DNA of 64,000 nt from the NCBI RefSeq assembly GCF_045037415.1, contig NZ_CP173438.1; one strand, 5' to 3'. Position numbers and translations under genes: made by a program. The stretch is from Escherichia coli (GTDB lineage Bacteria; Pseudomonadota; Gammaproteobacteria; Enterobacterales; Enterobacteriaceae). The notes beneath the pieces are model-generated. The model made no database searches and was not told the DNA's origin. It worked only from the letters and a program-made list of their open reading frames with translations. Below are positions 10,150 through 29,514 of this stretch, in pieces (position 1 is the first letter of the stretch; the number at the start of each line of letters is the position of its first letter).

Positions 10150-10656
10150 ATGTCACAAACCGTTCATTTCCAGGGCAACCCGGTTACAGTCGCCAATTCC
10201 ATCCCGCAGGCGGGTAGCAAAGCGCAGACTTTTACTCTCGTGGCAAAAGATCTGTCTGACGTCACCCTCGGTCAGTTTGCGGGTAAACGCAAAGTGCTGA
10301 ACATTTTCCCGAGTATTGATACCGGTGTTTGCGCCGCATCAGTACGTAAGTTTAACCAACTGGCAACCGAGATCGACAACACCGTTGTGCTGTGTATCTC
10401 TGCCGATCTGCCGTTCGCCCAGTCTCGTTTCTGCGGCGCAGAAGGTCTGAACAACGTTATCACCCTCTCCACTTTCCGTAACGCTGAATTCCTGCAAGCC
10501 TACGGTGTGGCAATTGCTGATGGCCCACTGAAAGGTCTGGCAGCGCGTGCCGTTGTGGTTATTGATGAAAATGACAATGTGATTTTCAGCCAGCTGGTGG
10601 ATGAAATCACCACCGAGCCGGATTACGAAGCAGCTCTGGCTGTACTGAAAGCATAA
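10150..10656 (+). CDS. tpx: Thiol peroxidase (atypical 2-Cys peroxiredoxin)
   Basis: 168-aa ORF; recognised sequence. Confidence 0.95.
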
Positions 10657-10659
10657 GTT

Positions 10660-10694
10660 AATATGCCTGATGGTATTGCACCATCAGGCATATT
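10660..10694. terminator. Bidirectional hairpin between convergent tpx and tyrR
   Basis: AATATGCCTGATGG / CCATCAGGCATATT 14-bp inverted repeat with 7-nt loop. Confidence 0.5.
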
Positions 10695-10699
10695 CACGC

Positions 10700-12241
10700 T
10701 TACTCTTCGTTCTTCTTCTGACTCAGACCATATTCCCGCAACTTATTGGCAATCGCGGTATGTGAAACGCCGAGACGTTTTGCCAGTTTGCGCGTGCTGG
10801 GATAATTGCGATAAAGCTGGGTTAATACCGAGCGTTCAAAACGGCTGGTGATTTCGTCCAGCGAACCTTCCATCGCATCTTCGCCCACGGCTACCGTTGC
10901 GGCGTCATAATCCGGCAACAAAATATCCTGTGGACGCAGCTCATAACCGTCCAGTTGTGTCAGTGCACGATAGATAGCGTTCTTTAACTGCCGCACATTT
11001 CCCGGCCACGCATAACGCGTAAGTACAGTATTCAGATCAGCGGCCAGTTTCGGACGCGGCACGCCCTGCTCGTCGGCAAAGCGGGCGACGAACAGCTCGG
11101 TTAACGGCATGATGTCCTGCGGACAGTCACGTAGCGGCGGCAGATTGAGCGTCAACACGTTCAGACGATAATAGAGATCTTCACGGAACACGCCTTTTTG
11201 CACCAGTTCGACCAGATTCTTCTGCGTAGCGCAAATCACCCGCACATCGACATGCACCTCATGGTCTTCGCCAACCCGACGGAAGGTGCCATCATTAAGG
11301 AAACGCAGTAATTTCGCCTGCATCCGTGGTGACATCTCACCTATTTCATCCAACAGCACCGAACCACCGTTCGCCTGCTCAAAGAACCCTTTCTTCCCTT
11401 CCGGAGCATGACCAAACAGTTCACTCTCGACCGCATCTTCCGGTATAGACGCACAGTTCAGCGCCAGGTAAGGTTTGCTCGCTCTGGGGCTTGCCTGATG
11501 ACAGGCGTAGGCAAAGAGATCTTTTCCGGTGCCGGTATCACCCGTAATCAGCAGTGGCGCGCTTAGCATCGCCAGTTTCTGCGCCTGTTCGACAACATGC
11601 TTCATTTTCGGGCTGACAGCGACAATTTGACTGAAGGCGCTGACATCCTGGGCGGCGACATTTTGCAACTGACGGCCCATACGAATCGTTGATCGCAGCA
11701 TCACCACCGCACCGGTCAGGACGTGTTGATCATTTTCATCCTGAAGATAAACAGGCGTAATCTCCATCAGGAAATTCTGCCCATTAATAACGACATGCTC
11801 GTTATGCGAATCTTGCGGTTCGCTTTCCAGCCAGCGTAAAAAATTAAAGCCGTTAATCAATTGCGCGGCGGTATGGTTGCGCAGGCGATCCAATTTTTGC
11901 CCAAAAAGCTGACAGCTCGCCGGGTTCGCCATATCCACTTTGCTTTTCATATCGACAGAGAGCACAGGTTCAGGCAACGCCTCCAGTAACGCGCTCAACG
12001 CCAGATGCTCACGTTCGGAAGGCATCCACGGGACAGTACGCACATCGGTAACACCTGCAATACGGCGTATTTCGGCCATCAGACTGCTGAAACTCTCAAA
12101 CTCCAGTTCAGCAAAATTGAGGTAGATTCGCCCAATGGGGTCAATCTCAATACCGCGTAAATCAATGCCTCTTAGCACGAGTAGATCGAGTAATTCGCGG
12201 GTCAGACCGAGTCGGTCTTCACAAAAGACTTCCAGACGCAT
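10700..12241 (-). CDS. tyrR: TyrR, sigma54-type AAA+ transcriptional regulator of aromatic amino acid genes
   Basis: ORF 10700..12268; start placed at MRLEVFCEDR giving 513 aa; Walker A GDTGTGKD and C-terminal HTH. Confidence 0.95.
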   Translation of the reverse strand: MRLEVFCEDRLGLTRELLDLLVLRGIDLRGIEIDPIGRIYLNFAELEFESFSSLMAEIRRIAGVTDVRTVPWMPSEREHLALSALLEALPEPVLSVDMKSKVDMANPASCQLFGQKLDRLRNHTAAQLINGFNFLRWLESEPQDSHNEHVVINGQNFLMEITPVYLQDENDQHVLTGAVVMLRSTIRMGRQLQNVAAQDVSAFSQIVAVSPKMKHVVEQAQKLAMLSAPLLITGDTGTGKDLFAYACHQASPRASKPYLALNCASIPEDAVESELFGHAPEGKKGFFEQANGGSVLLDEIGEMSPRMQAKLLRFLNDGTFRRVGEDHEVHVDVRVICATQKNLVELVQKGVFREDLYYRLNVLTLNLPPLRDCPQDIMPLTELFVARFADEQGVPRPKLAADLNTVLTRYAWPGNVRQLKNAIYRALTQLDGYELRPQDILLPDYDAATVAVGEDAMEGSLDEITSRFERSVLTQLYRNYPSTRKLAKRLGVSHTAIANKLREYGLSQKKNEE

Positions 12242-12311
12242 GGGAACCTTCACCTGAAAAAAGAACAATTAATATGATGATATGACACTATTTGGATAGC
12301 AGGAAGGTTTC

Positions 12312-12329
12312 TGTCAACAATCATTGACA
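12312..12329. promoter_or_regulatory. Candidate TyrR box in the tyrR upstream region
   Basis: Perfect inverted repeat TGTCAA-N6-TTGACA, one mismatch per arm from the TGTAAA-N6-TTTACA consensus; about 70-90 bp upstream of the tyrR start. Confidence 0.45.
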
Positions 12330-12388
12330 CAAAGACGGAAAAACGGGCACTTCGGCGTAAAGATATCCGGTCAGCACCCGATATTGCA

Positions 12389-13450
12389 TTATTTTTCGCT
12401 GGGCGTTTTGCCTTTTTGCAGAGTTTCTTTCACCTGACCGATAAGCTGACGACGGAAATCCCCGAGGCGTGGCTTGTCATCGTCAATCCACGGCAGCGGG
12501 CGGCAAAGCTCCATAGCTTTAATCCCGAGTCGTGCCGTCAGAAGTCCAGCACCAATCCCCTGAGCTGCCCGGGTAGACAAACGCGCAGCGAGATCTTGCG
12601 ACATCCAGTCCATCCCCACTTCGCGCACCAGTTCGCTGGCTCCGGCGAAAGCGATATTCAGCAATACCAGCTTAAACAGGCGCAAACGGCTGTAATATCC
12701 CAGTTCAATGCCATACAGCGTGGCGATGCGATTAATCAAACGCAGATTGCGCCAGGCGATAAACGCCATATCCACCAGCGCCAGTGGGCTAACGGCAATC
12801 ATTAACGTTGATTCCGCCGCTGAGCGGCTGATTTCGCGCCGCGCCTGGGCATCTAAAACTGGCTGGACCAGGTGAGCATACAAACTGACCACTTCACGAT
12901 CGTTCTGCGTTTCATGGATTGAGGCATACCAGCGCTGCAGCGCCGGATGTGACTGATCGATGCCCGCCTGCTGCGCCAGTTTTTCGCAGAATGCACGGCC
13001 TTTACCCGTGCCGTGACTGTGCAACAAATCGCGCGCTTCATCGCGTTCATGGGCGCGCTGTCGCAAGCGCCATAAGCGCCGCCACTCTGTTACCACAGAA
13101 CCTACGCCAGCGCCGATAATCAATGCCCCAGCGGCACATCCACCCAGCGCCACCCAGTCCTGGGTTTGCCAGGCGTTCATTGTCCACTGCACGCCCTGCC
13201 CGACAACGCTTGCGCCAAACAGAGCCAGCCCGCCCATCACCATTTTGCGCCACAGGCTGCGTTTCGGACGTAACGCTGCGTCCATCACCGCTTCAACTTG
13301 CCCCTCTTCTTCCTGTGCTTCGTCGAGCGTGGCCGGGGCAAAATTTTGCGCCTGATTTTCGTCAAAGGTCTGCTGCGCCCTGAATTTTGGATTCTGATCG
13401 ACCTCCAGTGGACCGTCGAAATCAATACGTGGTTTTAACGGTTCGGTCAT
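12389..13450 (-). CDS. ycjF: Inner-membrane protein YcjF (DUF697)
   Basis: 353-aa ORF; start overlaps the ycjX stop by 4 bp. Confidence 0.85.
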
Positions 13451-14844
13451 CGCAATTTATCTCCTATTAAAAATTCCAGCGCAGCATCAAGACGAATATG
13501 CGGTAGCGGTTTGTCGACATCCATCACCTGCGGACGAAACGCCTCAAACTGGAAGCCTTGCTTATCCCAGAACGCCTGACCTGGCAAACGTGCGGGAACT
13601 TCGCCAGGATAAACAGTGAGCGGTGCGCCATCGCTGAGTCGATTACCGCGCAGCGCCGGGATTTTCTCACCGTTAACATCAATCATTCCGCTGGTGGTCG
13701 CCTGAACAGACGCCAGCCCCAGGCAGTCCATACTGATCCCTTCGAACGCCGCATTTTGCCATGCATCCTGAATCAGTTGTTGCAGCAATGAAACCATATT
13801 GGCGTGCTGATCGATGGTCACATGGTCCGCTTTAGTGGCAGCAAACAATAGCTTATCGATAACCGGCGAAAACAAACGCCGGAACAGGGTACGCTGCCCG
13901 TAGTGGAAACTTTGCATCAGCTGCGTCAGCGCCAGACGCATATCATTAAATGCCTGTGGCCCACTGTTGAGAGGTTGCAGGCAATCCACCAGCACAATCT
14001 GGCGGTCAAAGCGCAGAAAATGATTCTTATAGAACCCCTTCACCACTTTCTCGCAGTAATAATTAAACCGCTCGCGCAACATTCCGGCATTAGTGTGCTT
14101 ATCGGCCTGCGCCAGTTTGGACTCGCCCCAGGCATCGACATCCGGCCACGGGAAGAATTGCAGCGCGGGTGCTCCTGCCATATCTCCCGGCAAGACAAAG
14201 CGCCCAGGCTGAATAAAGTGCAACCCCTGCTGTTTGCAGTGATGGAGATACTCGGTCCAGGCGGCGGCAATGTCTGCCAGCCGGTTTTCGTCGGCAGGCG
14301 CTAGCGGGTCCAGCCCTTCGCACATCATTCGCCATTTCGCCGACCATTCGCCGCGCTGACCATTGAGTAAGCCCGTCATCTGGCGCGACCAGCTTAAATA
14401 GTCCTGCGCCAGCATCGGCAGGTCGAGCAACCATTCGCCGGGGTAATCCACAATCTCCAGATACAGCGTGGAGGTATCCTTAAAGTGGCGCAGCAGCGAA
14501 TCGTTCGATTTAAAACGTAACGCCAGGCGAATTTCACTGACACCGCGCGTAGGCGTCGGCCAGGCGGGAGGATCGCCATATAACTGCGCCAACCCTTCAT
14601 CATAGGTGAAGCGCGGAATGCCAAAGTCACGCTGGGGAATGCGTTTTACGCCCAGCAGGCGCTCTTCACGCACCGCACTTAAAAGCGGCAAACGTGCTCC
14701 GGCATGAATATTGAGCAACTGATTAACCATCGCGGTGATAAACGCTGTTTTGCCGCTGCGGCTAAGTCCGGTTACAGCGAGGCGCAGATGTCTGTCGACA
14801 CCCCGATTCACCAGCGCATTGAGTTCATTTTTAAGTCGCTTCAT
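13447..14844 (-). CDS. ycjX: P-loop NTPase YcjX (DUF463)
   Basis: ORF 13447..14916; start placed at [11 protein letters not shown] giving 465 aa; Walker A GLSRSGKT. Confidence 0.85.
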
Positions 14845-14897
14845 TGCTGTCCTGTGCTGCTCTGAAGACCAGAAAAAAAATCGTTCGTAAGGATATG

Positions 14898-14926
14898 AAT
14901 GTGGGGGCCAGGCCATTGATTATCAA
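14898..14926 (-). promoter_or_regulatory. Candidate sigma32 (heat-shock) promoter for ycjX-ycjF(-tyrR)
   Basis: Minus strand reads TTGATA - 13 bp - CCCCCACAT, resembling the sigma32 -35 TTGAAA and -10 CCCCATNT; ycjX is a reported sigma32 regulon member. Confidence 0.5.
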
Positions 14927-14999
14927 CTACCCGTGTTGTCATCGACGGGCGAACTCCATAAGATGTGCAGCATTCACGTTCGGACGGAGTTCCTGACCT

Positions 15000-15998
15000 A
15001 TGTCCCCTACTATTTATGATATTGCCAGGGTTGCAGGCGTATCAAAATCCACCGTATCACGCGTGCTGAATAAGCAAACCAATATCTCCCCGGAAGCGCG
15101 CGAAAAAGTGTTACGGGCCATTGAAGAATTACAGTATCAACCAAACAAGCTGGCCCGCGCGCTGACCTCTTCGGGTTTTGATGCCATTATGGTGATTTCT
15201 ACTCGTTCGACCAAAACTACGGCGGGTAATCCATTTTTCTCTGAAGTTTTGCATGCCATCACCGCCAAAGCAGAAGAAGAAGGTTTCGACGTGATATTAC
15301 AAACGTCGCACAATCCGGCAGAAGATCTGCAAAAATGCGAAAGCAAAATTAAGCAGAAAATGATTAAAGGCATTATTATGCTAAGTTCGCCTGCCGATGA
15401 ATCCTTCTTTGCACAACTCGACAAATACGAGATCCCGGTGGTGGTGATCGGTAAAGTTGAAGGTCAATACAGCCATGTTTATTCCGTCGATACCGATAAT
15501 TATGGCGACAGTATTGCGCTGACCAATGCGTTAATTGAAAGCGGGCATAAGAATATAGCCTGCCTGCATGCGCCGCTTGATGTACAAGTTTCAGTGGATC
15601 GGGTAAATGGTTATAAGCAAAGTCTGGCTACGCATAATATTGCAGTGCGTGATGAATGGATTGTTGACGGCGGTTATACCCATGAGACAGCATTAAAAGC
15701 AGCACGGGAATTATTAAGCCAGTCACCGTTGCCTGAGGCAGTGTTTGCTACTGACAGCCTGAAATTAATGAGTATTTATCGTGCGGCGGCAGAGAAAAAC
15801 ATTGCTATTCCGCAGCAGTTAGCGGTGGTGGGTTATAGTAATGAAACGCTGTCGTTTATATTAACGCCTGCACCAGGCGGCATCGATGTTCCGACGCAGG
15901 AGTTAGGTCAACAAAGCTGCGAGTTATTATTCCAGTTAATTGCCGGAAAACCGTCACCACAAAATATTACCGTTGCTACGCATATGTCGTTGAAATAA
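15000..15998 (+). CDS. ycjW: LacI-family transcriptional repressor YcjW
   Basis: 332-aa ORF; N-terminal LacI HTH ([21 protein letters not shown]) and periplasmic-binding-protein-like sensor domain. Confidence 0.9.
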
Positions 15999-16003
15999 AT
16001 GTA

Positions 16004-16035
16004 TGCCGGATTTGGCGCTCGCCCCGCATCCGGCA
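16004..16035. repeat. REP-like palindromic unit between convergent ycjW and ompG (probably also a terminator)
   Basis: TGCCGGAT...ATCCGGCA inverted repeat, GC-rich, resembling REP/PU elements. Confidence 0.5.
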
Positions 16036-16048
16036 ATTTAGCACATTA

Positions 16049-16954
16049 TCAGAACGAGTAATTCACCCCAACACCCGCATAATGGAATTTATCGCTGTCG
16101 CCTTCGTCGTGATCCTGCCACTCAAACGCGTATTCCAGCGAAACGGAAAGACCATTCTGGAAATCATAACCGTAAAATAAACCCACACGGTTAAAATCAT
16201 GGCCTTCACGTTCAATATCATCCTGCCAGTCCCAGTTACTCCAGCGATCCAGCCCAATGCGCGTATACGGCGTCACCGAGTGGTTGCCGAGCGTCAGCGG
16301 CAAATAGGCGCGAATTTCTTGCGTGGAAAACTCACCGTTATTGCGGCTATCATCCATATTGAAACCACGCTCGAGATAATAGTTCACTCGCAAGGCAACC
16401 GTTTCGTTGAAGGTATATTGCAGACCCGTTTCCGTTTCGACACGGGTATCAGCATAACCGGTCGTATTCAGATCGTTGGCAAATTTATACATCGACAGCC
16501 AACCGTTGAAACGTAAATCGTCAGTCAGTTTCACATCCCAGTCTGGCGCGATTTTCCAGCGCTGCATATTTGCCGTGTCTTTACCCGGTTCATCAACGTA
16601 GTGATAACCATAGTTACGGAAACCACCAGTCAGACCGAGACTGAAATCATCGCTTTCGAGGAACTGATAATGTACCTCCAGCTCCGGGCGATCAAACCAC
16701 GTTCCACGTTTACCCGCGCTATAATCTACCGGCCCTTCCTGATAATAGGCCAGAGAAATTCTCCACGGCCCGTTGGCGGCATTAAAATAGACAGAAGGCT
16801 CTGCCAGCCCATCCATATCTTCGACATAACCCTCGACGTTTTCTATTTCGTACATCGCGCCGATATTAAAGTGCCAGTTGTTCTTTTCCTCGGCCTGTGC
16901 GCAGGCCATTCCCGCACACATCACCAGTGCGGTACAGGGTAATAACTTTTTCAT
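16049..16954 (-). CDS. ompG: Outer membrane porin OmpG
   Basis: ORF 16049..17005; start placed at MKKLLPCTALVMCAGMACA (signal peptide) giving 301 aa; C-terminal aromatic residue. Confidence 0.9.
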   Translation of the reverse strand: MKKLLPCTALVMCAGMACAQAEEKNNWHFNIGAMYEIENVEGYVEDMDGLAEPSVYFNAANGPWRISLAYYQEGPVDYSAGKRGTWFDRPELEVHYQFLESDDFSLGLTGGFRNYGYHYVDEPGKDTANMQRWKIAPDWDVKLTDDLRFNGWLSMYKFANDLNTTGYADTRVETETGLQYTFNETVALRVNYYLERGFNMDDSRNNGEFSTQEIRAYLPLTLGNHSVTPYTRIGLDRWSNWDWQDDIEREGHDFNRVGLFYGYDFQNGLSVSLEYAFEWQDHDEGDSDKFHYAGVGVNYSF

Positions 16955-16998
16955 TATTGTTCCTTGTATTATCCTGGGAGAATGCCTTCCCCCTGTAT

Positions 16999-18081
16999 TT
17001 AGCAAATTGCTATTTCCGTTTCTGCATCAAAGAAATGACATTTAGTCATATCAAAATGAATAGTGATATTTTCTCCTGCATGATAATCATTTAACGCACC
17101 AGCACGGACCACTAACTCGTGCCCCCCAACCGTGGTGTAGAGCATAAATTCCGCACCGGTTAATTCCGCCACGCTAATTTTGGCGGAAATGTTATTTTCT
17201 TCTTGCGCATCCGGATGAATATCCTCCGGGCGTATTCCCATCACAATGGGTTTATGTAAACTTTCCTGCGTTTTCAGAACCGCTAATTTCTCTTCGGGAA
17301 TGGTTAATTTAAGTGTTTCCGTAACGAATTTATCGCCATCGATCGTGCCGCGAATAAAATTCATTGCTGGTGACCCAATAAATCCGGCAACAAACATATT
17401 CGCCGGTTGGTTATAGACCGTTTTCGGCGCACCGACCTGCTGAACAATCCCATCCTTCATAATGACAATCCGCGTCGCCATGGTCATCGCTTCGGTCTGA
17501 TCGTGGGTCACGTAGATCATGGTGGTGTTCAGTTTCTGATGCAGCTTGCTGATCTCTGCGCGCATTTGCACACGCAGCTTGGCATCCAGGTTAGAGAGCG
17601 GCTCATCCATTAAAAACACGCCCGCTTCGCGCACAATCGCCCGCCCAAGCGCCACTCGCTGACGTTGCCCGCCGGAAAGCGCGCCCGGCTTGCGTTTCAG
17701 GTACTCACGCAGGCCGAGGATTTGCGCCGCCCAGTTAACCCGCTCATCAATCATCTCTTTGGCGATTTTTTGTATCTTCAGGCCAAACGCCATGTTGTCG
17801 TAGACCGTCATATGCGGATACAGCGCGTAGTTCTGGAACACCATCGCGATATTGCGTGCTTTGGCTGGAACGTCATTCATTCGTTTGCCGTCGATCAACA
17901 GCTCACCGCCGCTGATCTCCTCAAGCCCGGCAATCATACGCAGGGTGGTCGATTTACCGCAGCCCGACGGACCGACAAACACGATGAACTCTTTATCGGC
18001 AATCTCCAGGCTGAAGTCCTTCACCACATGCACCTGGTTATCGTAGATCTTTTGAATATGTTGTAACGAAAGCTGTGCCAT
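16999..18081 (-). CDS. ycjV: ABC transporter ATP-binding protein YcjV (MalK/UgpC-like), apparently intact
   Basis: 360-aa ORF; Walker A GPSGCGKST, signature LSGGQRQRV, Walker B FLMDEPLS and a C-terminal MalK-type regulatory domain. Confidence 0.9.
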   Translation of the reverse strand: MAQLSLQHIQKIYDNQVHVVKDFSLEIADKEFIVFVGPSGCGKSTTLRMIAGLEEISGGELLIDGKRMNDVPAKARNIAMVFQNYALYPHMTVYDNMAFGLKIQKIAKEMIDERVNWAAQILGLREYLKRKPGALSGGQRQRVALGRAIVREAGVFLMDEPLSNLDAKLRVQMRAEISKLHQKLNTTMIYVTHDQTEAMTMATRIVIMKDGIVQQVGAPKTVYNQPANMFVAGFIGSPAMNFIRGTIDGDKFVTETLKLTIPEEKLAVLKTQESLHKPIVMGIRPEDIHPDAQEENNISAKISVAELTGAEFMLYTTVGGHELVVRAGALNDYHAGENITIHFDMTKCHFFDAETEIAIC

Positions 18082-18094
18082 GTTGATTCCTTTG

Positions 18095-18754
18095 CTATAC
18101 GTTTTGCCAGAAGGCCGATAACCGCGGCCAGGTCAGGGAGTCCGTTGAGGGCAACAATAATTGCGCCCCGGTTAAGCCCGCGCCGATCCCCACCGAGCGC
18201 ATACCGCTGGCGTTAATGGCGTCAATGCCCGCCTGCGCATCTTCAATGCCGATACATGCCTGTGGCGGCACGCCCAGCCCTGCACAGGCGGCGAGAAAGA
18301 TTTCCGGGTCCGGTTTCGAATTTTTGAGTTGGGAAGCGTCCGCGCAGAAGGTGAAAAACTCGCGCAGCTCCAGCGCTGCTAAAATCGTCGGCGCATTCAG
18401 GGAGACAGAAGCCAGCCCAACTGGAATCTGCTGTGCCCGGAGATCTACCAGCAAATTGTGAATGCCAGGCAGCACAGCATTAACCGTCAGTTCGCGCAGT
18501 GAGTGGACGTAAAGCAGATTTTTGCGATACGCCAGTTGCGCCCGTTCCTGTGGGTTAAAATCGCCCTCTTTACCCCCGTGCTGCAGAATTCGCCGCAGGG
18601 ACTCATCGCGGCTGATCCCTTTTAGGAATTCGTTAAACTGCGCATCAATGCTGATGCCAATTTCAGCGGCAATCTGCTGCCACGCCTGGAAATGCAGATG
18701 CGCGGTATCGGTGATTACTCCATCCAGATCGAAAATTACCCCTTGCAGTTTCAT
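18095..18754 (-). CDS. ycjU: Beta-phosphoglucomutase (HAD superfamily)
   Basis: 219-aa ORF; HAD motif [11 protein letters not shown]. Confidence 0.9.
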
Positions 18755-21018
18755 TCACCCTCCTGATGCGTGGTAGCGGTCCCATTGAAGGGCAAAATAA
18801 AATCCCCCAAACAGAAAACAGATTCTTCAGCGACGTAAATAAGCTGACCGTTCAAACGCAGTGAAACAGGCGCAGAAGTTCGAATCGCAATACGCTGCGC
18901 GTCGAGAGTGACCTGTAATTCGCAGCCCTGCCAGAACAGAGGGAAAGACAACTGTTGCCACTGCTCAGGTAACGCCGGATTGAGATGTAATTCACCGTCA
19001 CGCACGCTCACCCCGGCAAAACCCTGAATCGCCCCCAGCCAGATAGCGCCAGTTGCGGCAGCGTGGATACCGTCATCACAGCTATGCGGATCAGCACCAA
19101 GATCGATTTCAGTCCCCTCGCGCCAGAACTGATAACTTTGGGTCAGCAGGCCACAGCGTGCGGCAACAATGCCGTGGATTGCTTTACTTAATGACGAGTC
19201 GTGAATAGTGCGCGGTTCATAAAATTGCAGATTGGCAAGACACGATGCCGCTGAGAACTGCTCCGGCAGCATGTAATTGAGCATCACCACATCAGCTTGT
19301 TTGAGGATCTGCATCTCGTTCACTTCTGCGCGTGAATAATCCAGCAGAATGGTTTGCTTCCCCGCCGCCGCTTTGTATTTCGCCAGATTAATCACCGGCT
19401 TAGCCATAAACGAATCATCCTGCGGCAAAACGCCGTCGGGCTGAATTTCTGGCAGCCGCAGTTCTTTGAGGTACATTTCTGCACGATGAATAAACGCGTC
19501 GTCGCTACAGCCAAACTGACGAGCGATATTCAGCGCCTGCTGGACGTTGTAATACGCCATATAGCTGGTGAAGGCGTTATTATTGACATGTTCGGTATAT
19601 TCGTCTGGCCCAATAACATCATGAATTTCCAGACGCTCGTTAACCCTCACCGCGCGGCTAATCCAGAACTTTGCCGTCTCCAGAAGTAGCGCCATGCCTT
19701 CATGAGCAATGAAACTTTCATCCCCCGTGGTCCGCCAGTATTGAATCACCGCCCAGGCGATATCGGCGACCAGATGGTGTTCCGCCTGCGCAGAGGCCAC
19801 TTTTTGCCGCAGCCCGGTACGAATGTTAATGGCGGCAAATTCCGGCGTCTCTTCTTCGCCGCTACGCGCGCTTTCCCACGGAAACAGAGCGCCCTGCCAG
19901 CCGTTGCGTCGCGCTTTCTCCTGCGCGCCAGGCAAGTTGTGCCAGCGATAACGCAGTAAACTTCGGGCAACCGTCGGATCGCTAAACAGATGGAACGGTA
20001 GCAAAAATACTTCTGTATCCCAGAAAACGTGGCCTTTGTAGCCTTCGCCGGTTAAACCTTTCGCCGCAATGCTGCTGCGCTCATCGTGGGCAGGCGTCAT
20101 GATGCGCAGGTGATAAAGCGCATAATCTAATGCTTGCTGATCGTGCGCATCGCGGCCGTTTACCGTGATACGACGTTTCTGCCACCATTGACGCCAGTTT
20201 TCTGTTGATGCTGCAAGAAGTTGGTCGTAACTCTGCTGCGCGCACATTTCAAGCTGACGAAGCGACGCACTGCCCCATTCGTCTAAAGCGGCTTGTCTGT
20301 CGTCCCGCCAGTCGATCCACACCAGTTTTTGCAGCGTCAGCGTCTCACCTGCGTGAAGCTGCGCGCAGGTATGTTGCAATAAACGGCGCTCTTTGGCGGT
20401 ATAGCATTGCTGCACATCACCGCTCACCTTACAGCAACAGCTGATGGCCACATCACTACGCCCATCCTGGGTGGTGTAGATCCCCTGCATCAGATGCTGA
20501 CCAAACACCCGCACCTGGATTTCGTCAATATGCTGGCGACCGTGGTTGGTTTGCGTGGCGTCAATGCCTGTTGAAATCAGCACTGACGCGTCGGCGTCCA
20601 GTGGAGTAATAGTGATTTCCAGCGCAATGAGCGGCAGTTGGTCTGCCGAAACAAAGCGACGGCTGGCGATGGTGTAACCAGTGCCGTTGCTGGTACGCCA
20701 GACAACGTTGCGACGTAATTCGCCACTGGCAAAGTTAAGCTCACGCTGCCATGCTTCGCGGGATAACGAGAAAATCTCACCATTTATGGCAATCTCCATC
20801 CCCACGACATCAGGCAGGTTCACCAGTTCGTTGATTTCTCCTTTACCCGCTCGATGATACAGCCCCGCCAGATACATCCCACGGGTCTGGCGCGTGTAAT
20901 CTTCTTCATGGCTGGCACGAAGCCCAAGATAGCCGTTCCCCTGCGCCATCAGCGAAGCATACTTGTTCAGGGTATGCTGGCTGAAATGGGGTTCTGATAA
21001 CGTTACTGGCCTGGTCAT
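18751..21018 (-). CDS. ycjT: Kojibiose phosphorylase (glycoside hydrolase family 65)
   Basis: 755-aa ORF; GH65 architecture; synteny in the ycj cluster. Confidence 0.9.
18769..18785. promoter_or_regulatory. Candidate YcjW (LacI-family) operator, inside the last codons of ycjT and just upstream of ycjU
   Basis: CGTGGTAGCGGTCCCAT, identical over 17 bp to 28696..28712; fits the LacI-family core TGnnAnCGnTnnCA. Confidence 0.6.
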
Positions 21019-22070
21019 AATTCCACACGCGTCCCTGTTTCCGCGGATTGATACAACGCCGCCACCAGTTGCTGGATGATGTACCCCTGCTCGGCGTCGG
21101 CTATCATCACGGGCTTGCCCTGTACGTGATTGATAAAGGCTTCCATGCTGCGCAAATGGCGGTTGTCGTCTGCCATTTCCCGTTGCATCAGCGTCATTAA
21201 TTCACCGTTGTTATCGGTGTAGATATGTGCCGGAAACAGCGTCGCACCGGCTTTATCACCACAAAAGCTGACATTCATAATCGACTGTTCGCGGATGTTG
21301 AGTGCAAATGACGTTTCCAGCCACAGAATGCCGCCGTTATGAAATTCAATGGTGCCAAACAGCGAATCTTCAACGCTGTAAGTTGCCGGGTCCCACTCGC
21401 CAAATTGACCACAGCTCTTTTGCGTGCCGATCTTTTGAAAGCTATGCGCATTCACGCTTTTCACCGCCGGAAAGCCCAGCACATACATCGCAGCATCCAG
21501 CATATGAATGCCGATGTCGATCAGCGGGCCACCACCCTGCAGTTCTTTATTGGTAAAGACACCCCAGCCGGGAACGCCGCTGCGACGCAGGGCGCGGGCG
21601 GTGGTAACGTAAATCTCTCCCAAAACGCCGTTGGTCACCTGTTCACGCAGCTGTTGCGTATCGAACGCAAAACGATGGTGAAAGTCGTAGGCCAGCACCT
21701 TGCCCTGTTTGCGCGCGGTATCGCACATTTCCCGCGCCTGTTCTGCCGTCATGGCGGGCGGTTTTTCGCACATCACATGGCAGCCCGCTTCAAGCGCCAT
21801 CAGGGTATGTTCGTAATGAAAACGGTTCGGTGAGCAGACGCTAACCACATCAGGTTTCACCGCCAGCAGCATGGCCTGCGGATCGTCCCACAAGGATGCA
21901 TTACCGTATTTTTCTGCCAGCGCCTGCGCCTGGGAAAGGCGGCTGTCACAGACGGCCACCAGTTCCAGATCGTTGCGGGTGCAGTAGTACGAAGCATGAA
22001 CCTTATCCGCCACCTGGCCTGCGCCGATTATCGCGACACGCAGCGGAGAGCTTGTCATTGCACTTTTCAC
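21015..22070 (-). CDS. ycjS: Gfo/Idh/MocA-family NAD-dependent sugar dehydrogenase YcjS
   Basis: 351-aa ORF; N-terminal Rossmann fold VAIIGAGQVA. Confidence 0.85.
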   Translation of the reverse strand: MKSAMTSSPLRVAIIGAGQVADKVHASYYCTRNDLELVAVCDSRLSQAQALAEKYGNASLWDDPQAMLLAVKPDVVSVCSPNRFHYEHTLMALEAGCHVMCEKPPAMTAEQAREMCDTARKQGKVLAYDFHHRFAFDTQQLREQVTNGVLGEIYVTTARALRRSGVPGWGVFTNKELQGGGPLIDIGIHMLDAAMYVLGFPAVKSVNAHSFQKIGTQKSCGQFGEWDPATYSVEDSLFGTIEFHNGGILWLETSFALNIREQSIMNVSFCGDKAGATLFPAHIYTDNNGELMTLMQREMADDNRHLRSMEAFINHVQGKPVMIADAEQGYIIQQLVAALYQSAETGTRVEL

Positions 22071-22079
22071 AAAGACCTC

Positions 22080-22868
22080 TTAGCAGGTGCGCAACCAGGC
22101 CAACGAATCACGGTACGCCTGGGCAGGAGCTTCTGCCCGGATACGCCCTTCATACACCACATAACCCTGATAGTTATCGGCGCGCAGCTGTTCAAACAGC
22201 GCGTGGAAATCGAGGGTGCCGCTGCCCGGCTGGTAACGATGGTTATCGGCAATATGCACATGACCGAGCAAGTCGCGGTGGTCATGCAGCGCCTGCGCCA
22301 GGTTATCTTCTTCGATGTTCATGTGATAGAAATCGCCGATAATCTGCACATGTTTAAGATCGTTTTCGACGATGTAACGGCGGGCATCGGCGAGAGTATT
22401 GATCATATGATCCTGATAACGGTTTAACGGTTCGAGATACACCACGGTTCCGGTACGCGCGGCGACCTGTTCCAGTACGCGCAGGGAATCACTCACCATT
22501 TTGCGGTCGCCGTCCAGGCTGCGCGGCGAGGTCATCGGCGGTAAACGGAAGGTAAACATGCCCCATGCAGCAGGAACGACGATACCTTTACCGCCCACTT
22601 CTGCCAGCGCTTCGAGAATGCGTTCGATCTGCTTTAAGCCATTAAGACGACGCTCTTCGATAAAATCACCAATCCAGCCGTCATAGCCGCCGCAGGCAGT
22701 GGTCACCGGTAAACCGGTTTCTTTGATCGCCGCTTTGACTTCTTCGATGTTGTTGACCAGCAGTTTGCCGTCAATCTCAAAACCATCGAAGCCCATCTCT
22801 TTGATGTAACGAAATTTCTCCAGAATATTTCCCGGAAAGAATGCCTGATTCTGTGTGCCTATTTTCAT
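22080..22868 (-). CDS. ycjR: Sugar-phosphate isomerase/epimerase (xylose-isomerase-like TIM barrel) YcjR
   Basis: ORF 22080..22997; start placed at MKIGTQNQAFF (ATG at 22866-22868) giving 262 aa. Confidence 0.85.
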   Translation of the reverse strand: MKIGTQNQAFFPGNILEKFRYIKEMGFDGFEIDGKLLVNNIEEVKAAIKETGLPVTTACGGYDGWIGDFIEERRLNGLKQIERILEALAEVGGKGIVVPAAWGMFTFRLPPMTSPRSLDGDRKMVSDSLRVLEQVAARTGTVVYLEPLNRYQDHMINTLADARRYIVENDLKHVQIIGDFYHMNIEEDNLAQALHDHRDLLGHVHIADNHRYQPGSGTLDFHALFEQLRADNYQGYVVYEGRIRAEAPAQAYRDSLAWLRTC

Positions 22869-22885
22869 TTTTTCATTCCTTTGAA

Positions 22886-23938
22886 TTAAAACGTAACGCC
22901 CATTTTGATGCTCTGTTCCGGATGCTGATCGACATACTGCATGTAGCTTTCCGGGCTGTTGGCAAAGGTCACTACCGGGTCGATTAAATCTTCGCAATTG
23001 AGATAACCGTTCATCAGCAGTTCCCAGCAGGTTTCTTCAATACGCTTACGGCTCCAGCGCGGATAATCCGGGTTCGGTTCGCTGCACGCGCGGGAGAAAA
23101 CAATTTTGGCGTTATTGAAATGCGCTTCGCGTCCGAGGTTAAAACCTTCAGCAAATGGTTTGGCAAACGCGACATAGGAGATGGTGCCGCCGTAGGCCAG
23201 ACCGCGGAGCGCCGACTGCAGCGCGTCGGCGTAGCCGCTGGTTTCGATAATCACATCGGCACCCTGCTTGCCGGTCAGCGTTTTGATCTCTTTACCTACG
23301 TCAGCGCCAATGGGGTTAAGACAGAAATCCGCACCGTGGCGACGGGCAATATCACAGCGATGAGCGATAGGATCGACACCAATCACCACCGACGCGCCAG
23401 CGCGTTTTGCCAGTTGAATGGCAATTTGACCAATCGTGCCAAGCCCTACCACCACCACAAAATCGCCCACGCGCACGTTGGCATCGCGCACGCCGCTCAT
23501 GGCAAACTGCGCCGGGTCGTAACAGACGGCGTTTTTCCAGGAGCTGCCTTGCGGCATTTTGCGCAGCTTGTAGTTATTCACTGCGTTAATGATGACCGTC
23601 TCGGAGAGCGGGCCGTAGCCGCATACGCTGTCGCCCACCGCGTAGTCGTTAACGTCGCTGCCGCACTCGATAATGTCGCCAACCACCATGTTGCCAAGCT
23701 GGAACTTGCCAAACTCAATGCCGCGCGGCGCATTTGCCGGACGCGGGCTGAACATCTGCCATTCACCGTTAAAGTCTTCATCGATAAACGGACTGGCAGC
23801 GCGGAAATCGACCACTTCCGTCCCGTGCTTCGGAGCGCCGAAACGCACGCGGATCTTCACTTCATTGGCTAAAATCGCCCGCTCTTCATACTCAACCAGC
23901 GCAGCTACACGCGGTGCTGTGGCTACTAACTTTTTCAT
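22886..23938 (-). CDS. ycjQ: Zinc-binding medium-chain alcohol/sugar dehydrogenase YcjQ
   Basis: 350-aa ORF; MDR-family NAD-binding GxGxxG (VVGLGTIGQ). Confidence 0.85.
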   Translation of the reverse strand: MKKLVATAPRVAALVEYEERAILANEVKIRVRFGAPKHGTEVVDFRAASPFIDEDFNGEWQMFSPRPANAPRGIEFGKFQLGNMVVGDIIECGSDVNDYAVGDSVCGYGPLSETVIINAVNNYKLRKMPQGSSWKNAVCYDPAQFAMSGVRDANVRVGDFVVVVGLGTIGQIAIQLAKRAGASVVIGVDPIAHRCDIARRHGADFCLNPIGADVGKEIKTLTGKQGADVIIETSGYADALQSALRGLAYGGTISYVAFAKPFAEGFNLGREAHFNNAKIVFSRACSEPNPDYPRWSRKRIEETCWELLMNGYLNCEDLIDPVVTFANSPESYMQYVDQHPEQSIKMGVTF

Positions 23939-23968
23939 GTAAAACTCCTTGTAAAGAAATTGGTCGCT

Positions 23969-24811
23969 TTAGCCCTTCACGCCACCAGCGGTCAAACCAC
24001 TCTTAATAAAACGTTCCGAAAGCGCATACATAATCACTACCGGTAGTGCGGTCACCAGCGAGGCCGCCATCATCCGTCCCCAGATGTAATCAGGCGTACT
24101 GAACAGCGCGTTCAGGCCCACAGGTAAGGTGAAATTGCTGGCGCTGGAAAGGAAAATCGACGCAAACAGATAGTCGTTCCACGCCACCATAAAGCAGTAG
24201 ACGAATACGGATATCAGCCCGGACATTGCCAGGGGCACGGTGATACGGAAGATAATTTGCAGACGATTGAGGCCATCCATCATTGCCGCTTCTTCGATTT
24301 CATCGGGGATGGTGTCGAAGTAGCTTTTCAGCATAAACACGGCGGTAGGCAGAGTTTGCGTCACCATGGTGATAATCAGCGCCATCTCGGTGTCGTAAAT
24401 GCCAAGTGCGGTGATGATTTTGAACAGCGGCACCACCAGCAAAATGCCGGAGAACATGTACACCGTGTAAAAGCTGGCGTTGATGGTCATTCGCCCTTTA
24501 AAGCGCAGGCGGGAAAGCGCGTAAGCCCCAAGAATGCCGAGAAATACCGCCACCACGGATGAAACCACCGACACCACCATGCTGTTACGGAAGTAGTCGA
24601 CAAACGGGAAAATCACCGGATTAAAAATGTCGACGTAATGCTCCAGCGTCCACTGCTGTGGCAGCAACGTAGGATGCAGCGAGATCGCCTCTTTTGCGCT
24701 CTTGAACGAGGTCATCAGCATCACAAAAAATGGAAACAGCGTGATGATGAGAAACAGCGCCAGCCCGCAGTAAAAACCGATTCGACTGAGTGTGCGTTTA
24801 TTTGTTGCCAT
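23969..24811 (-). CDS. ycjP: ABC sugar transporter permease YcjP
   Basis: 280-aa ORF; multiple TM helices and MalG-like EAA loop region. Confidence 0.85.
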   Translation of the reverse strand: MATNKRTLSRIGFYCGLALFLIITLFPFFVMLMTSFKSAKEAISLHPTLLPQQWTLEHYVDIFNPVIFPFVDYFRNSMVVSVVSSVVAVFLGILGAYALSRLRFKGRMTINASFYTVYMFSGILLVVPLFKIITALGIYDTEMALIITMVTQTLPTAVFMLKSYFDTIPDEIEEAAMMDGLNRLQIIFRITVPLAMSGLISVFVYCFMVAWNDYLFASIFLSSASNFTLPVGLNALFSTPDYIWGRMMAASLVTALPVVIMYALSERFIKSGLTAGGVKG

Positions 24812-25679
24812 TGAGGTTCACCCGTTTCCTGGTCAGCAGAATGACAGCGAAAATAATGATGAAAAGCACCACCGAGATCGCCGCCGCTTTCCCTAAGTCA
24901 TTAAAGGCAAAGGCGGTTTTGTAGAGATAGACACCGAGAATATCGACCTTGGTCGTCAGCAGATAAACATCCGCGAACATGTAGAACATCCAGATAGTGC
25001 GCAGGGTCACCACCGTCGCCAGAACCGGCATAATCGCGGGCAGCGTGACGATGCGAAACCGTTGCCAGGCATTCGCGCCATCCATCTCTGCCGCTTCGTA
25101 CAGCGATTTGTCGATGGTCTGCAAAATCGCCAGAAACGAGATAAAGGCATACGGGAAGTAGCGCCAGATGGCGAACAGCACCACCAGCACAAAACTACTG
25201 CCCGGGTTATCGAACCACAGCGGCGCCTGCTCATAGAGATGCAGAAGATCGACGCCGAGGTAGTTCACAATGCCGTAGCCGTTGTTGAACATGTATTTCC
25301 AGGCGAACACCAGCGAAATAGACGGCGTTACGTAGGAAAGGATCACCAGCGAACGCGCGGTTTTGCGCAGGCGGAACTCGCGGTTGAAAAACATCGCCAC
25401 GGCCAGCCCGAGCACGGTGCTGCCCGCCACCACAAGCGCGGTATACCAGACCGTCATCCACAGCGAGTGCCAGAAACCAGGATCGGAGAGAATGCGCACA
25501 TAGTTACTCACCCCAACAAACGTTGACTCGATGTTGGGATTAAGCGGCAGACGTAAAAAACTGATTTCGATATTCGACACCATCGGCCACGCCACCAGAC
25601 CGCCCAGCAGTAATAAGCTGGGCGCGAGAAGCAACAGCGCAAAGGGCATATCGGAACGACCTGAAAAAAGCCTGTTCAT
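24798..25679 (-). CDS. ycjO: ABC sugar transporter permease YcjO
   Basis: 293-aa ORF; MalF-like permease; 14-bp overlap with ycjP. Confidence 0.85.
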   Translation of the reverse strand: MNRLFSGRSDMPFALLLLAPSLLLLGGLVAWPMVSNIEISFLRLPLNPNIESTFVGVSNYVRILSDPGFWHSLWMTVWYTALVVAGSTVLGLAVAMFFNREFRLRKTARSLVILSYVTPSISLVFAWKYMFNNGYGIVNYLGVDLLHLYEQAPLWFDNPGSSFVLVVLFAIWRYFPYAFISFLAILQTIDKSLYEAAEMDGANAWQRFRIVTLPAIMPVLATVVTLRTIWMFYMFADVYLLTTKVDILGVYLYKTAFAFNDLGKAAAISVVLFIIIFAVILLTRKRVNLNGNK

Positions 25680-25699
25680 TGCGGATTCCTGTCCTGGGT

Positions 25700-26992
25700 T
25701 TAGCGCTGTTCGACCAACTCATCCAGCTTTTTCTGGCTCGCTTGCAGCGTGCCAGGGAGGTCGGCTTTACCCACGGTGACGTTATGCACCATTGAACTCA
25801 CCACACCAGACCCCGTCACATCACCCATGCGGGTAAAGTTTTTATCCCCTACTGCGCCAAAGACCTGAATATTTGGCAATTCGCTGATTAGCTGATTCGG
25901 CAATTCTCCCAGCGCCTTAATAACGTCGTTGTCTTTCCAGGTGGCGGTAGTGACAACCGCTTTGTTCACCGGCAGCGCCGCGCCTGGTGACATCATCACC
26001 CAGTCGGCAATGTTGTCCGCCTGCTCCATAAAGGTGACAAATTTTTCAGCCGCTTCGGTCTCTTCAGTCTTTTGCCCGGCGGTAATGGTCAGCGAGGTCA
26101 ACATGCCGTAGACCGCAGAATTTTTCTCGGTTGGCACCACGAAACCAACGTTTTTCGGATCGCCTTCTTTAATCACAGCCGGAAGGATATAGGTGGAGTA
26201 AATCGCCATCGGCGCGGTGCCGTTCATAAAAGCGTCTTTCACTTCCATGATGTCGTTAGAACCTGGCATGGTGTTGGCAGCAAGGTTGCGGTAATAGGTC
26301 AGCGCCTGCATCATCTCTGGTGTATCAAGGGTGATTTTGCCTTCGGCGTTAAAGACGTTAGCCTGATTGGATAACGCAAACTGGGAGAAAGACTGTTCCG
26401 TCAACACGCTTTCTGCTGTAGGCAGCGCAATACCGTATTTTTTATTCGCCGGGTCATTCAGTTTCTGTGCAACGTCCAGCAATTGCTGCCAGTTTTTTGG
26501 CTCCTCCAGCCCAGCTTTTGCCAGCACATCTTTGCGATACCAGATCCCGCCAATCCATGCGCTGACAGGAACACCGGTCCAGGCGCTGCCATCTTCGGTG
26601 CGCACAATCCGCAGTACGCCATCGTAGAACGCGCCTTCACCGACGTTGCTGATGACCGTGGCAACCGCTTTACGATCGATAAGCTGCTCTTTGTCCATCA
26701 CTTTGGCGTAGTCATGGCTGGTTTCGATCACTTCCGGCAGCGAACCGCTACGTGAAAGGGTAATGACTTTGGTGTTATAGGCGTCTTCTTCCACGGGCAC
26801 TTGTTTTACGGTGATACCTGGGTTTTCTTTTTCAAAACGGGCAATCAATTTGCTGATGACGGCCTGGCGCTCCTGCTCCACCGAAGAATGCATAAATTCG
26901 ATGGATACATTATTTTTATTTTCTTCTTTACAGCCTGAAATCAGGGCGCAGGAAACCAGTGCTGATAACAGCACGATTTTTGATTTAATCAT
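25700..26992 (-). CDS. ycjN: Periplasmic sugar-binding protein YcjN (ABC transporter)
   Basis: 430-aa ORF; lipoprotein-like signal (LISGC); SBP family 1. Confidence 0.85.
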   Translation of the reverse strand: MIKSKIVLLSALVSCALISGCKEENKNNVSIEFMHSSVEQERQAVISKLIARFEKENPGITVKQVPVEEDAYNTKVITLSRSGSLPEVIETSHDYAKVMDKEQLIDRKAVATVISNVGEGAFYDGVLRIVRTEDGSAWTGVPVSAWIGGIWYRKDVLAKAGLEEPKNWQQLLDVAQKLNDPANKKYGIALPTAESVLTEQSFSQFALSNQANVFNAEGKITLDTPEMMQALTYYRNLAANTMPGSNDIMEVKDAFMNGTAPMAIYSTYILPAVIKEGDPKNVGFVVPTEKNSAVYGMLTSLTITAGQKTEETEAAEKFVTFMEQADNIADWVMMSPGAALPVNKAVVTTATWKDNDVIKALGELPNQLISELPNIQVFGAVGDKNFTRMGDVTGSGVVSSMVHNVTVGKADLPGTLQASQKKLDELVEQR

Positions 26993-27005
26993 GAAATGTT
27001 CCTTT

Positions 27006-28685
27006 TTATTTAATCCACATAACCTGCCAGGGATGCAGTGTTATTTCATTACCCAATATATCAACTTCACTAATCAGATCCCGACCGTGCAGGTCAGTAA
27101 TATTTATATGCTGAATATTTTCGCTGACATTAAACAATCCCGTCAGGCAATCGCCATCCGCATTGCTTCTTTGAATTCGCATTACAAATGAATTAATTGC
27201 ATCGATGGTGAAATTATTATCCGGATGAAACTCTTTATGACTGCGACGAAGGGTAATTAAATGCGACAACTTATAATATACCGAATACCTTAATGTCGCT
27301 TTATTGTCCAGTTCTGTCGTTATCTCTTTACTAGAGTATTTTTTACGGTTAATCGCGCGATTATATCCAAGTTTTTCGACACCGGCGTAATCATTACGCG
27401 ACCCCAGAATGCTTTGAATATATATCGCTGGCACACCGGGGAAACTTAACAAAATCGCATGGGCGAGAATAAACCTGGCACACCGTTCTTCGTCGCTACA
27501 CTCACGGCGGCTCAACGCATCCATATAGGTGACATTCATTTCATAGGGGCTACGCGTACCGTCGGGATTATTTTTCCAGTTTACTAATGCCCCTTCCTGC
27601 TGTAACACCTCGACCAGCGCTAATATTTCGTTTTCGGGTAACAACCCCCGCAGTGGGTTAAGCCCGATGCCATCGTGAGAGGCAAGGAAGTTAAACCAGG
27701 TGGTGTTGCTGGAAGGTAGTGTCAGGTTTTGCGCCCACGCACAAAGTGCCTCAACGTTCTGTTTTTGCACCGCATGCAGCACCAGCGGCGGCAGCGAGAA
27801 CTGGTACACCATATGCGCTTCGTCATCGCCTTCGCCAAAGTAAGCAATGTTGTCTTTATGCGGAACATTGGTCTCGGTAATGATCACTGTGCCTGGCGCG
27901 ACGTTATCAATAATCGAACGTAACAGTTTGATAATCAGATGTGTTTTTTCCAGATGGATGCAGTTTGTTCCCGGCTCTTTCCACATAAAGCCAACGGCAT
28001 CCAGACGGACATACTCTGCGCCCTTTTCCAGGTAGCACAGCAATACATCCACCATCGCCAGCAACACTTCAGGGCTACGGTAATTGAGGTCAATTTGATC
28101 GTCGCTAAAGGTGGTCCATAAATGACGCGTTGAATGATCGCGCATCTGGAATGGCGTTAATAACGGTAACGCACGCGGGCGAGTGACGGCGCTGAGATCG
28201 GTTTTCGGATCAACGGTAATAAAAAAATCTTCAAAACCTGGCTGCTGTTGTAAATAGTTTTTAAACCATTCACTTTTTGCCGACATATGGTTGCAGACAA
28301 AATCAAACATTAAATGGCTGCATTCACCGAGTTGCTGAATATCCTGCCACTCCCCCGCTTCACTGGCGACCTGATGATAATCAATTACCGAAAATCCATC
28401 ATCAGATGACCATGGATAAAAAGGTAATAAATGAACATGTGAAAAAATTCTTTGCAGCCATTGAGGGTAAAACTGATTAAATGTGGGTAGTGGCTTTAAA
28501 TCATTACTGTGAAATTGATCGGCATAGGTAATTAACACGACATCACTTTCATCCCAGTGTTTTTTACGTCGCTGTGTAATTAATCGTTTCGCACTCTCAA
28601 GACGCGTTACAAGTTTCTGTAAATGAGTCGCGGTAAATGTTCCACCGTAGATTTCGTCCAGGTAATCCGTAATTTTCTGTTGCAT
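27006..28685 (-). CDS. ycjM: GH13 sucrose-phosphorylase-like enzyme YcjM (reported glucosylglycerate phosphorylase)
   Basis: ORF 27006..28712; start placed at MQQKITDYL (ATG at 28683-28685) giving 559 aa. Confidence 0.85.
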   Translation of the reverse strand: MQQKITDYLDEIYGGTFTATHLQKLVTRLESAKRLITQRRKKHWDESDVVLITYADQFHSNDLKPLPTFNQFYPQWLQRIFSHVHLLPFYPWSSDDGFSVIDYHQVASEAGEWQDIQQLGECSHLMFDFVCNHMSAKSEWFKNYLQQQPGFEDFFITVDPKTDLSAVTRPRALPLLTPFQMRDHSTRHLWTTFSDDQIDLNYRSPEVLLAMVDVLLCYLEKGAEYVRLDAVGFMWKEPGTNCIHLEKTHLIIKLLRSIIDNVAPGTVIITETNVPHKDNIAYFGEGDDEAHMVYQFSLPPLVLHAVQKQNVEALCAWAQNLTLPSSNTTWFNFLASHDGIGLNPLRGLLPENEILALVEVLQQEGALVNWKNNPDGTRSPYEMNVTYMDALSRRECSDEERCARFILAHAILLSFPGVPAIYIQSILGSRNDYAGVEKLGYNRAINRKKYSSKEITTELDNKATLRYSVYYKLSHLITLRRSHKEFHPDNNFTIDAINSFVMRIQRSNADGDCLTGLFNVSENIQHINITDLHGRDLISEVDILGNEITLHPWQVMWIK

Positions 28686-28695
28686 GTTGCCTTTC

Positions 28696-28712
28696 CGTGG
28701 TAGCGGTCCCAT
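28696..28712. promoter_or_regulatory. Candidate YcjW (LacI-family) operator in the ycjM leader
   Basis: CGTGGTAGCGGTCCCAT about 10-27 bp upstream of the ycjM start codon; twin of 18769..18785. Confidence 0.6.
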
Positions 28713-28856
28713 GAAGCGAGAGACTACTCCGCATAAAATAAACTGTCAATTGAGCTCAAGGGGTTTAGTCACGCAGGAAATCTTTTTTTACCTGGGAAAA
28801 AGCGTATTTGTGAGCTGACGCAAATAATCTATGGGGATGTAAATAAGGTGTGACAG

Positions 28857-28878
28857 AAAAAAACGGCGCATAAGCGCC
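28857..28878 (-). terminator. Rho-independent terminator downstream of pspE
   Basis: Minus strand: GGCGC-TTAT-GCGCC hairpin followed by TTTTTTT. Confidence 0.7.
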
Positions 28879-28895
28879 GCTCATGGTGAATTCTT

Positions 28896-29210
28896 TTAAC
28901 CTTTGACCTTCGGCATTGCGATGTCTTTCAGGCCACCGGCGTTCTCAACGTGGGTATATCCCATCTCGCTAAGGATCTCTTTTGCCTGCCCTGACTGGCG
29001 TCCGGCATTGCAATACACTTTCACGGTGTCGTTTTTATCCGGAACGGCGGTAGCAATGCGCTCTTTCACTTCCTTCAGGGGAATATTGATGGCCCCCTGA
29101 ACGTGCTCTTGCTGATACTGCTCTGGAACACGAACATCGATCCAGTGTTCAGCGGCGAAAACGGGCAGTGAAAACACCAGTGTCAGAGCAAGTAAGCCTT
29201 TTTTAAACAT
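28896..29210 (-). CDS. pspE: Periplasmic rhodanese (thiosulfate sulfurtransferase) PspE
   Basis: 104-aa ORF with signal peptide and rhodanese active-site region (VKVYCNAGRQS). Confidence 0.95.
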   Translation of the reverse strand: MFKKGLLALTLVFSLPVFAAEHWIDVRVPEQYQQEHVQGAINIPLKEVKERIATAVPDKNDTVKVYCNAGRQSGQAKEILSEMGYTHVENAGGLKDIAMPKVKG

Positions 29211-29506: not shown

Positions 29507-29514
29507 AACTTTCC

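Follow-up and report, generated by a model that had tools for sequence, protein, structure and literature searches.

The question raised by this locus is whether ycjX, together with the genes that follow it, is transcribed from a heat-shock promoter of its own. The DNA analysed (the window) is a stretch of 64,000 nucleotides of an E. coli chromosome, and the 701 nt around the site in question match many E. coli chromosomes at 100% identity, and in these the annotated flanking genes are ycjW and ycjX. The gene order of K-12 MG1655, which is ompG, ycjW (on the opposite strand), ycjX, ycjF, tyrR and then the convergent tpx, is present on the minus strand of the window. Positions were converted by the relation K-12 (v3) coordinate = 1384117 + (14844 - window position), which was verified base by base. 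The coding sequences are as follows:

15000-15998, plus strand: ycjW, encoding a LacI-family regulator
13447-14844, minus strand: ycjX, 465 residues, annotated ATG at 14844
12389-13450, minus strand: ycjF, its ATG overlapping the ycjX stop codon (ATGA, 13450-13447)
10700-12241, minus strand: tyrR

The ycjX and ycjF products are a P-loop NTPase (DUF463) and a membrane protein (DUF697) and the regulator TyrR follows, whereas the canonical sigma-32 genes encode chaperones and proteases. A longer ycjX reading frame beginning at 14916 appears in the program-made list of open reading frames. It begins inside the promoter spacer described below and differs from the annotated start.

Within the 155-nt ycjW/ycjX intergenic region the minus strand at the motif reads gtagTTGATAatcaatggcctggCCCCCACATtcatatcc. 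The first-pass annotation had parsed this sequence as TTGATA, 13 bp and CCCCCACAT, and had likened the two elements to those of sigma-32 promoters. An exact pattern search found TTGATA at 14926-14921 and CCCCCACAT at 14907-14899 of the minus strand, and the likeness was borne out both by that search and by the top rank of the site in a matrix scan (see below). The span first given, 14898-14926, does hold the motif, but the exact match is 14899-14926, and thus position 14898 is either one base off or takes in the next T. The motif lies on the ycjX strand, 55-83 nt 5' of the ycjX ATG. When both strands of the 64 kb were searched with the looser pattern TTGAWA-N12-15-CCCCA, a single match was found (0.24 expected from shuffled sequences), and 22 of 100 shuffles contained at least one match. 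Taken alone, the motif is improbable only to a mild degree; its weight comes from its position and strand before ycjX.

A bipartite matrix was trained iteratively on 14 K-12 sigma-32 promoter regions (those of dnaK, groS, grpE, htpG, clpB, ibpA, hslV, lon, clpP, htpX, fxsA, ybeD, ybeZ and prlC), the sites being found by the procedure itself. The trained matrix recovered the textbook CTTGAAA-13/14-CCCCATnT sites of dnaK P1, groS, grpE, htpG and others. With this matrix the ycjX site ranked first among 127,948 window positions with a score of 15.4 bits, the next match having 14.6 bits. The best register was GTTGATA, a 14-nt spacer and CCCCACATT, whereas the register of the first-pass annotation (13 nt followed by CCCCCACAT) scored only 8.6 bits. 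For the functional -10 element, CCCCACAT after a 14-nt spacer is the better reading, and it is the additional C at 14907 that yields CCCCCACAT. The two elements are:

14921-14927, minus strand: -35 element GTTGATA (consensus CTTGAAA), at -36 to -30 from the mapped start
14898-14906, minus strand: -10 element CCCCACAT(T) (consensus CCCCATnT), at -15 to -8 (-7)

The C-run of CCCCATnT serves as the sigma-32 "extended -10". The -35 element gives 7.4 bits of the matrix score and has an intact TTGA core, and CCCCACAT at 14906-14899 gives 7.6 bits with one mismatch, and is thus below consensus. Measured from the 7-mer -35 element to CCCC, the 14-nt spacer lies within the 13-14 nt of sigma-32 promoters and equals that of groS, htpG, clpP and prlC. 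In its bipartite CTTGAAA/CCCCATnT plan, its 13-14 nt spacer and its -10 element at -15 to -8 the site resembles the canonical sigma-32 promoters (dnaK P1, groSL, grpE, htpG, ibpA and hslVU), which have leaders of about 50-150 nt. Unlike these, the ycjX -35 element begins with G rather than C and has T at position 6, and its -10 element has a C in place of the invariant T. None of the training promoters (17.8-26.6 bits) scores as low as 15.4 bits; the deficit is due to the -10 element, which reads CCCCAcAT, with a C where 14 of 14 training sites have T. The deviant base is the C at 14901, and a T there would give CCCCATAT. Other window matches of 14.4-14.6 bits were found at 59226-59252 (minus), 53106-53135 (plus) and 21346-21374 (minus). 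These are probably not promoters, and hence the score by itself is weak evidence for the ycjX site.

The intergenic region was also inspected by eye for promoters of other classes. A sigma-54 promoter was rejected, there being no TGGCAC-N5-TTGC in the region, as was a sigma-E promoter, since the GGAACT at 14992-14987 is not accompanied by a TCAAA -10 element. The sigma-32 -35 element lies within an 11-nt palindrome, TTGAT-A-ATCAA (window 14916-14926, minus strand). The same 11-mer is found in Enterobacter, and its arms recur with a 2-nt centre in E. albertii. By eye, the 19 nt around the palindrome agree with the consensus of the Fur box at about 14 positions. Judged from its sequence, the palindrome could be an operator overlapping the promoter, or could be due to chance, the arms being only 5 bp. 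A RegulonDB-derived table places "ycjXF-tyrR" under PgrR.

In the dnaK P1 scaffold of the sigma-32 open-complex structure CTTGAA occupies -35 to -30 and CCCCATTT occupies -15 to -8. The matrix site together with this geometry predicted, beforehand, a +1 at window 14891 +/-2. SMRT-Cappable-seq (Yan 2018, Supplementary Data 2) reports a primary capped 5' end at NC_000913.3 1384070, the C of cattcatatc[C]ttacg, and this is window 14891:

14891, minus strand: transcription start, +1 = C, equal to K-12 NC_000913.3 1384070 (base checked)
14845-14890, minus strand: 5' leader, 47 nt including +1, with an AGGA ribosome-binding site at 14853-14850

The start at 1384070 puts CCCCACAT at -15 to -8, as in dnaK P1, and falls within the 7-8 nt past the -10 element that is expected. 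The first-pass annotation had staked its reading on a start about 7 bp downstream of its -10 element, and 7 nt do intervene between the last T of CCCCCACAT and 14891. From the -35 element through +1 the core is identical to that of K-12. The two SNPs relative to K-12 lie outside the elements, one just upstream of the -35 element and the other in the leader at +11. Apart from these two SNPs, there is no substantive difference from ycjXp of K-12 (RegulonDB; Nonaka 2006) in locus, organism, core sequence or operon content. Among 5,426 complete E. coli genomes, 5,004 have the 61-nt promoter stretch at an identity of 95% or more.

The leader has a run of eight T residues (14880-14873, minus strand, +12 to +19), before which there is no hairpin; the run is thus not an obvious attenuator. 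No stable fold was detected in the ycjX 5' leader (fold z = +1.4) and no Rfam family matched positions 10500-16200 at E <= 1. An RNA thermometer or riboswitch in the ycjX leader is therefore unsupported.

The start at 14891 is one of three ycjX-directed starts at the locus, which also has a back-to-back ycjW promoter:

14936-14972, plus strand: divergent ycjW promoter TTGTCA-17-TAAGAT, transcription start at 14972 (TSS-seq and SMRT-Cappable-seq)
15008-15045, minus strand: distal, sigma-70-type ycjX promoter TTGATA-18-TATCAT, transcription start at 15008

The -35 element of the ycjW promoter stands back to back with that of the sigma-32 site, 10 bp apart. The distal ycjX promoter sits inside the first codons of ycjW and is accompanied by a weaker start at about 15044; SMRT-Cappable-seq has an entry at K-12 1383917 in this region. 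A transcript begun at 15008 overlaps the 5' end of the ycjW mRNA (start at 14972) by 37 nt in antisense orientation.

The distal promoter allows another account of the data, in which the motif before ycjX arose by chance and the promoter inside ycjW (start at 15008) drives ycjX and owns both the sigma-32 ChIP peak and the heat induction reported for the locus (see below). The frequency of the loose pattern in shuffled windows (22%) would fit such an account, as would the Kim 2012 and Cho 2014 TSS-seq sets, which lack the start at 14891, although a heat-shock sample is included in the latter, and report only the upstream starts v2 1381977 and 1381942 (window 15008 and 15043/15044, the second approximate). 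However, a capped 5' end is found exactly at the predicted +1, and the distal promoter has no sigma-32-like -10 element and is not among the matrix matches. Moreover, E. albertii and Citrobacter youngae, in which pspE lies upstream, are examples of species without ycjW that have kept the proximal motif. Given a capped start at the base that was predicted, and the retention of the proximal motif where ycjW is missing, the chance account is excluded for practical purposes, and we consider it highly improbable.

Conservation of the site was assessed in 80 ycjX loci from species-representative genomes ranging from Escherichia to Vibrio, Aeromonas and the Pasteurellaceae. The 200 nt upstream of each ycjX were scored with the sigma-32 matrix against a background of 1,600 windows of coding sequence from these loci, the 95th percentile of which was 9.5 bits. 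A sigma-32-like site with a -10 element ending 42-76 nt before the ATG was present in 17 of 27 Enterobacteriaceae and in 3 of the 53 other loci (Fisher's p 6e-8, with loci treated without phylogenetic correction). The 17 Enterobacteriaceae sites scored at or above the 95th background percentile and were in the same register. Sorted by the length of the spacer upstream of ycjX, 18 of 38 loci with at least 100 nt had the site versus 1 of 33 with a shorter spacer. An alignment of the upstream regions of 20 species had a mean column identity of 44%, and, the ribosome-binding site and ATG aside, no positions were invariant or nearly so except the TT of the -35 element and the CC..A of the -10 element. 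The -35 TT was at least 90% conserved, the -10 CC was invariant and the A was nearly so. The C-run is a determinant of sigma-32 rather than of sigma-70 recognition.

Published data connect the locus with sigma-32. In a 2010 paper on psp evolution (PMC3041696), ycjX-ycjF-tyrR is given as an experimentally verified RegulonDB unit, and a sigma-32 promoter associated with ycjX is credited to Nonaka 2006 (Genes Dev 20:1776). A re-examination of sigma-32 ChIP-chip data aimed at removing artefacts gave ycjX a signal of 2.9, equal to that of dnaK (2.9) (PMC2996942). ycjX and ycjF are two of four genes of unknown function that respond early to temperature upshift (PMC7572479), and both are induced together with ibpAB in phiX174 infection. 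The paper on RpoH genomic SELEX does not mention ycjX, the Cappable-seq 2016 supplements and the Bonocora 2013 supplement have no entries for the locus, and a full-text literature search for the promoter sequence or "ycjXp" returned no relevant paper.

Which sigma factor makes the start at 14891 is a separate matter. M9 and rich medium were used for the SMRT-Cappable-seq cultures, which included no heat-shock sample, and hence the start could be sigma-70-driven. TTGATA followed by 17 nt and CACATT would serve as a sigma-70 promoter, either with the sigma-32 likeness being minor or with dual use, sigma-70 providing basal and sigma-32 heat-induced transcription. TTGATA agrees with the sigma-70 -35 element at five of six positions, CACATT at -12 to -7 keeps the key A2 and T6, the spacer is 17 nt, the start was seen under ordinary growth in M9 and rich medium, and Cho 2014 assigned both sigma-70 and sigma-32 binding ("DH") to the ycjX units. 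Such a mainly sigma-70 or dual promoter is possible, although we regard it as rather less probable than not, since the CC/CCCC run conserved across genera is needed by sigma-32 and not by sigma-70, the sigma-32 ChIP signal equals that of dnaK, ycjX and ycjF are induced early upon heat shock and the site did not pass a sigma-70 consensus scan (8/12). Dual use of the site by the two sigma factors is quite possible and is compatible with a sigma-32 promoter. The ChIP signal, the heat response and the conserved C-run make it unlikely that sigma-70 alone uses the site. We infer that the 14891 start is made by the sigma-32 holoenzyme rather than, or besides, the sigma-70 holoenzyme, and conclude with high confidence that the motif is ycjXp, a sigma-32 (RpoH) heat-shock promoter of the ycjX-ycjF(-tyrR) unit.

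The first-pass annotation had further proposed that the promoter drives ycjX-ycjF and possibly reads into tyrR, and published transcripts from 14891 do either end after ycjF or run through tyrR. The full-length SMRT-Cappable-seq transcripts from 1384070 are b1321|b1322 and b1321|b1322|b1323, both of which are marked as the same as RegulonDB units. The accompanying claim that the junctions are short or overlapping was right for ycjX/ycjF (ATGA), but the ycjF-tyrR gap is 147 nt. This gap contains the promoter of tyrR itself, with a start at about 12271 (K-12 1386690), and an inverted repeat, TGTCAATGATTGTTGACA, which we take to resemble the tyrR autoregulatory operator (TyrR boxes). Two structures bear on where the transcripts end:

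12339-12380, minus strand: hairpin with an 8-bp G+C-rich outer stem followed by UUUUU, directly 3' of ycjF
about 10663-10693: strong terminator hairpin shared by tyrR and tpx, mapped 3' end at about 10660 (TTS 1388301)

The hairpin after ycjF was missed by the terminator scan owing to its long loop, and the fold of the region is not significant overall (z = -0.6). The Term-seq tables list no 3' end after ycjF. It is plausible that the hairpin and its five U residues act as a leaky terminator, a candidate that would explain the ycjX-ycjF and ycjX-ycjF-tyrR isoforms. The bicyclomycin-sensitivity table of Adams 2021 lists a Rho-dependent site at K-12 1386738 (+), about window 12223 and 18 nt into tyrR, which hints that Rho ends some transcripts early in tyrR.

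The proposed course of events is that sigma-32 RNA polymerase would recognize GTTGATA (-36 to -30) and CCCCACAT (-15 to -8) and begin transcription 47 nt ahead of the ycjX ATG, with the C at window 14891 as the first base. The rise in sigma-32 following heat or protein misfolding would then increase transcription of ycjX and of the translationally coupled ycjF. Some transcripts would stop at the weak hairpin-U5 past ycjF, and the remainder would continue over the 147 nt to tyrR, a gene that has a promoter of its own as well.

How ycjX came to have this promoter is suggested by its neighbours in other species. A tblastn search with the K-12 neighbours gave as the common arrangement pspF | pspABC(D)(E)-ycjX-ycjF-tyrR, and psp genes lie directly upstream of ycjX in most of the 80 loci. 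The pspABCD-ycjXF operon of Yersinia enterocolitica and many other Enterobacterales, which is dependent on sigma-54 and PspF, has the same ycjX-ycjF pair with the same overlapping junction. In these species ycjX lies 7-100 nt after pspD or pspC and has no sigma-32-like site, and in the matrix scan of the 80 loci the site was absent where ycjX abuts pspD or pspC. E. coli differs from the psp-coupled species in that the ycjM-ycjW island stands between psp and ycjXF, and the pair has its own sigma-32 promoter. The gene directly upstream of ycjX is pspE in E. albertii and in one divergent "E. coli", and ompG-ycjW is upstream in E. coli, some Enterobacter and Citrobacter, Siccibacter and Superficieibacter.

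Several loci show details of these arrangements. In E. albertii ycjX lies about 120 nt after pspE (positions 2066-2500 in the loci of E. albertii and of the divergent E. coli). In E. coli the ycjM-ycjV/ompG/ycjW sugar-utilisation island (about 15000-32000) lies between pspE and ycjX, with its boundary just 5' of the sigma-32 -35 element. Citrobacter sp. FP75 and C. werkmanii have ompG-ycjW, then pspE and then ycjX. In Moellerella wisconsensis (about 2420-2455 of its locus) a strong sigma-32-like site, GTTGATA, 14 nt and GCCCATATT, scoring 15.9 bits, is found 47 nt upstream of ycjX, inside pspD or at its end. As this species is outside the Enterobacteriaceae, the site could be an independent gain or due to chance.

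These arrangements can be read as a lineage-specific rewiring. In the ancestral state, as in Yersinia, Serratia, Proteus and Vibrio, ycjXF would have been the tail of the sigma-54/PspF-controlled psp operon. The Enterobacteriaceae would then have gained a spacer of at least 110 nt carrying the sigma-32 promoter, by which ycjXF, with some of the expression of tyrR, would have left the membrane-stress regulon for the cytoplasmic heat-shock regulon. Insertion of the ycjM-ycjW island upstream of the -35 element would later have fixed the separation in E. coli. We judge the chances of this scenario to be about even. The 2010 psp evolution paper (PMC3041696) called for such a promoter comparison, and our literature search found no report of one.

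RegulonDB and several genome-wide data sets already contain the promoter, its sigma factor and the operon, and thus the assignment is correct but ordinary and has little significance beyond annotation. What the analysis provides is verification to the base of a call made from sequence only, with the +1 at window 14891, and correction of the register to CCCCACAT with a 14-nt spacer. Mildly new is the distribution of the promoter, which is found where ycjXF is no longer coupled to the psp operon with its sigma-54 control, a pattern consistent with a regulatory rewiring in the Enterobacteriaceae. The comparative pattern thereby suggests a route by which ycjXF may have passed from psp (sigma-54) to sigma-32 control in this family.
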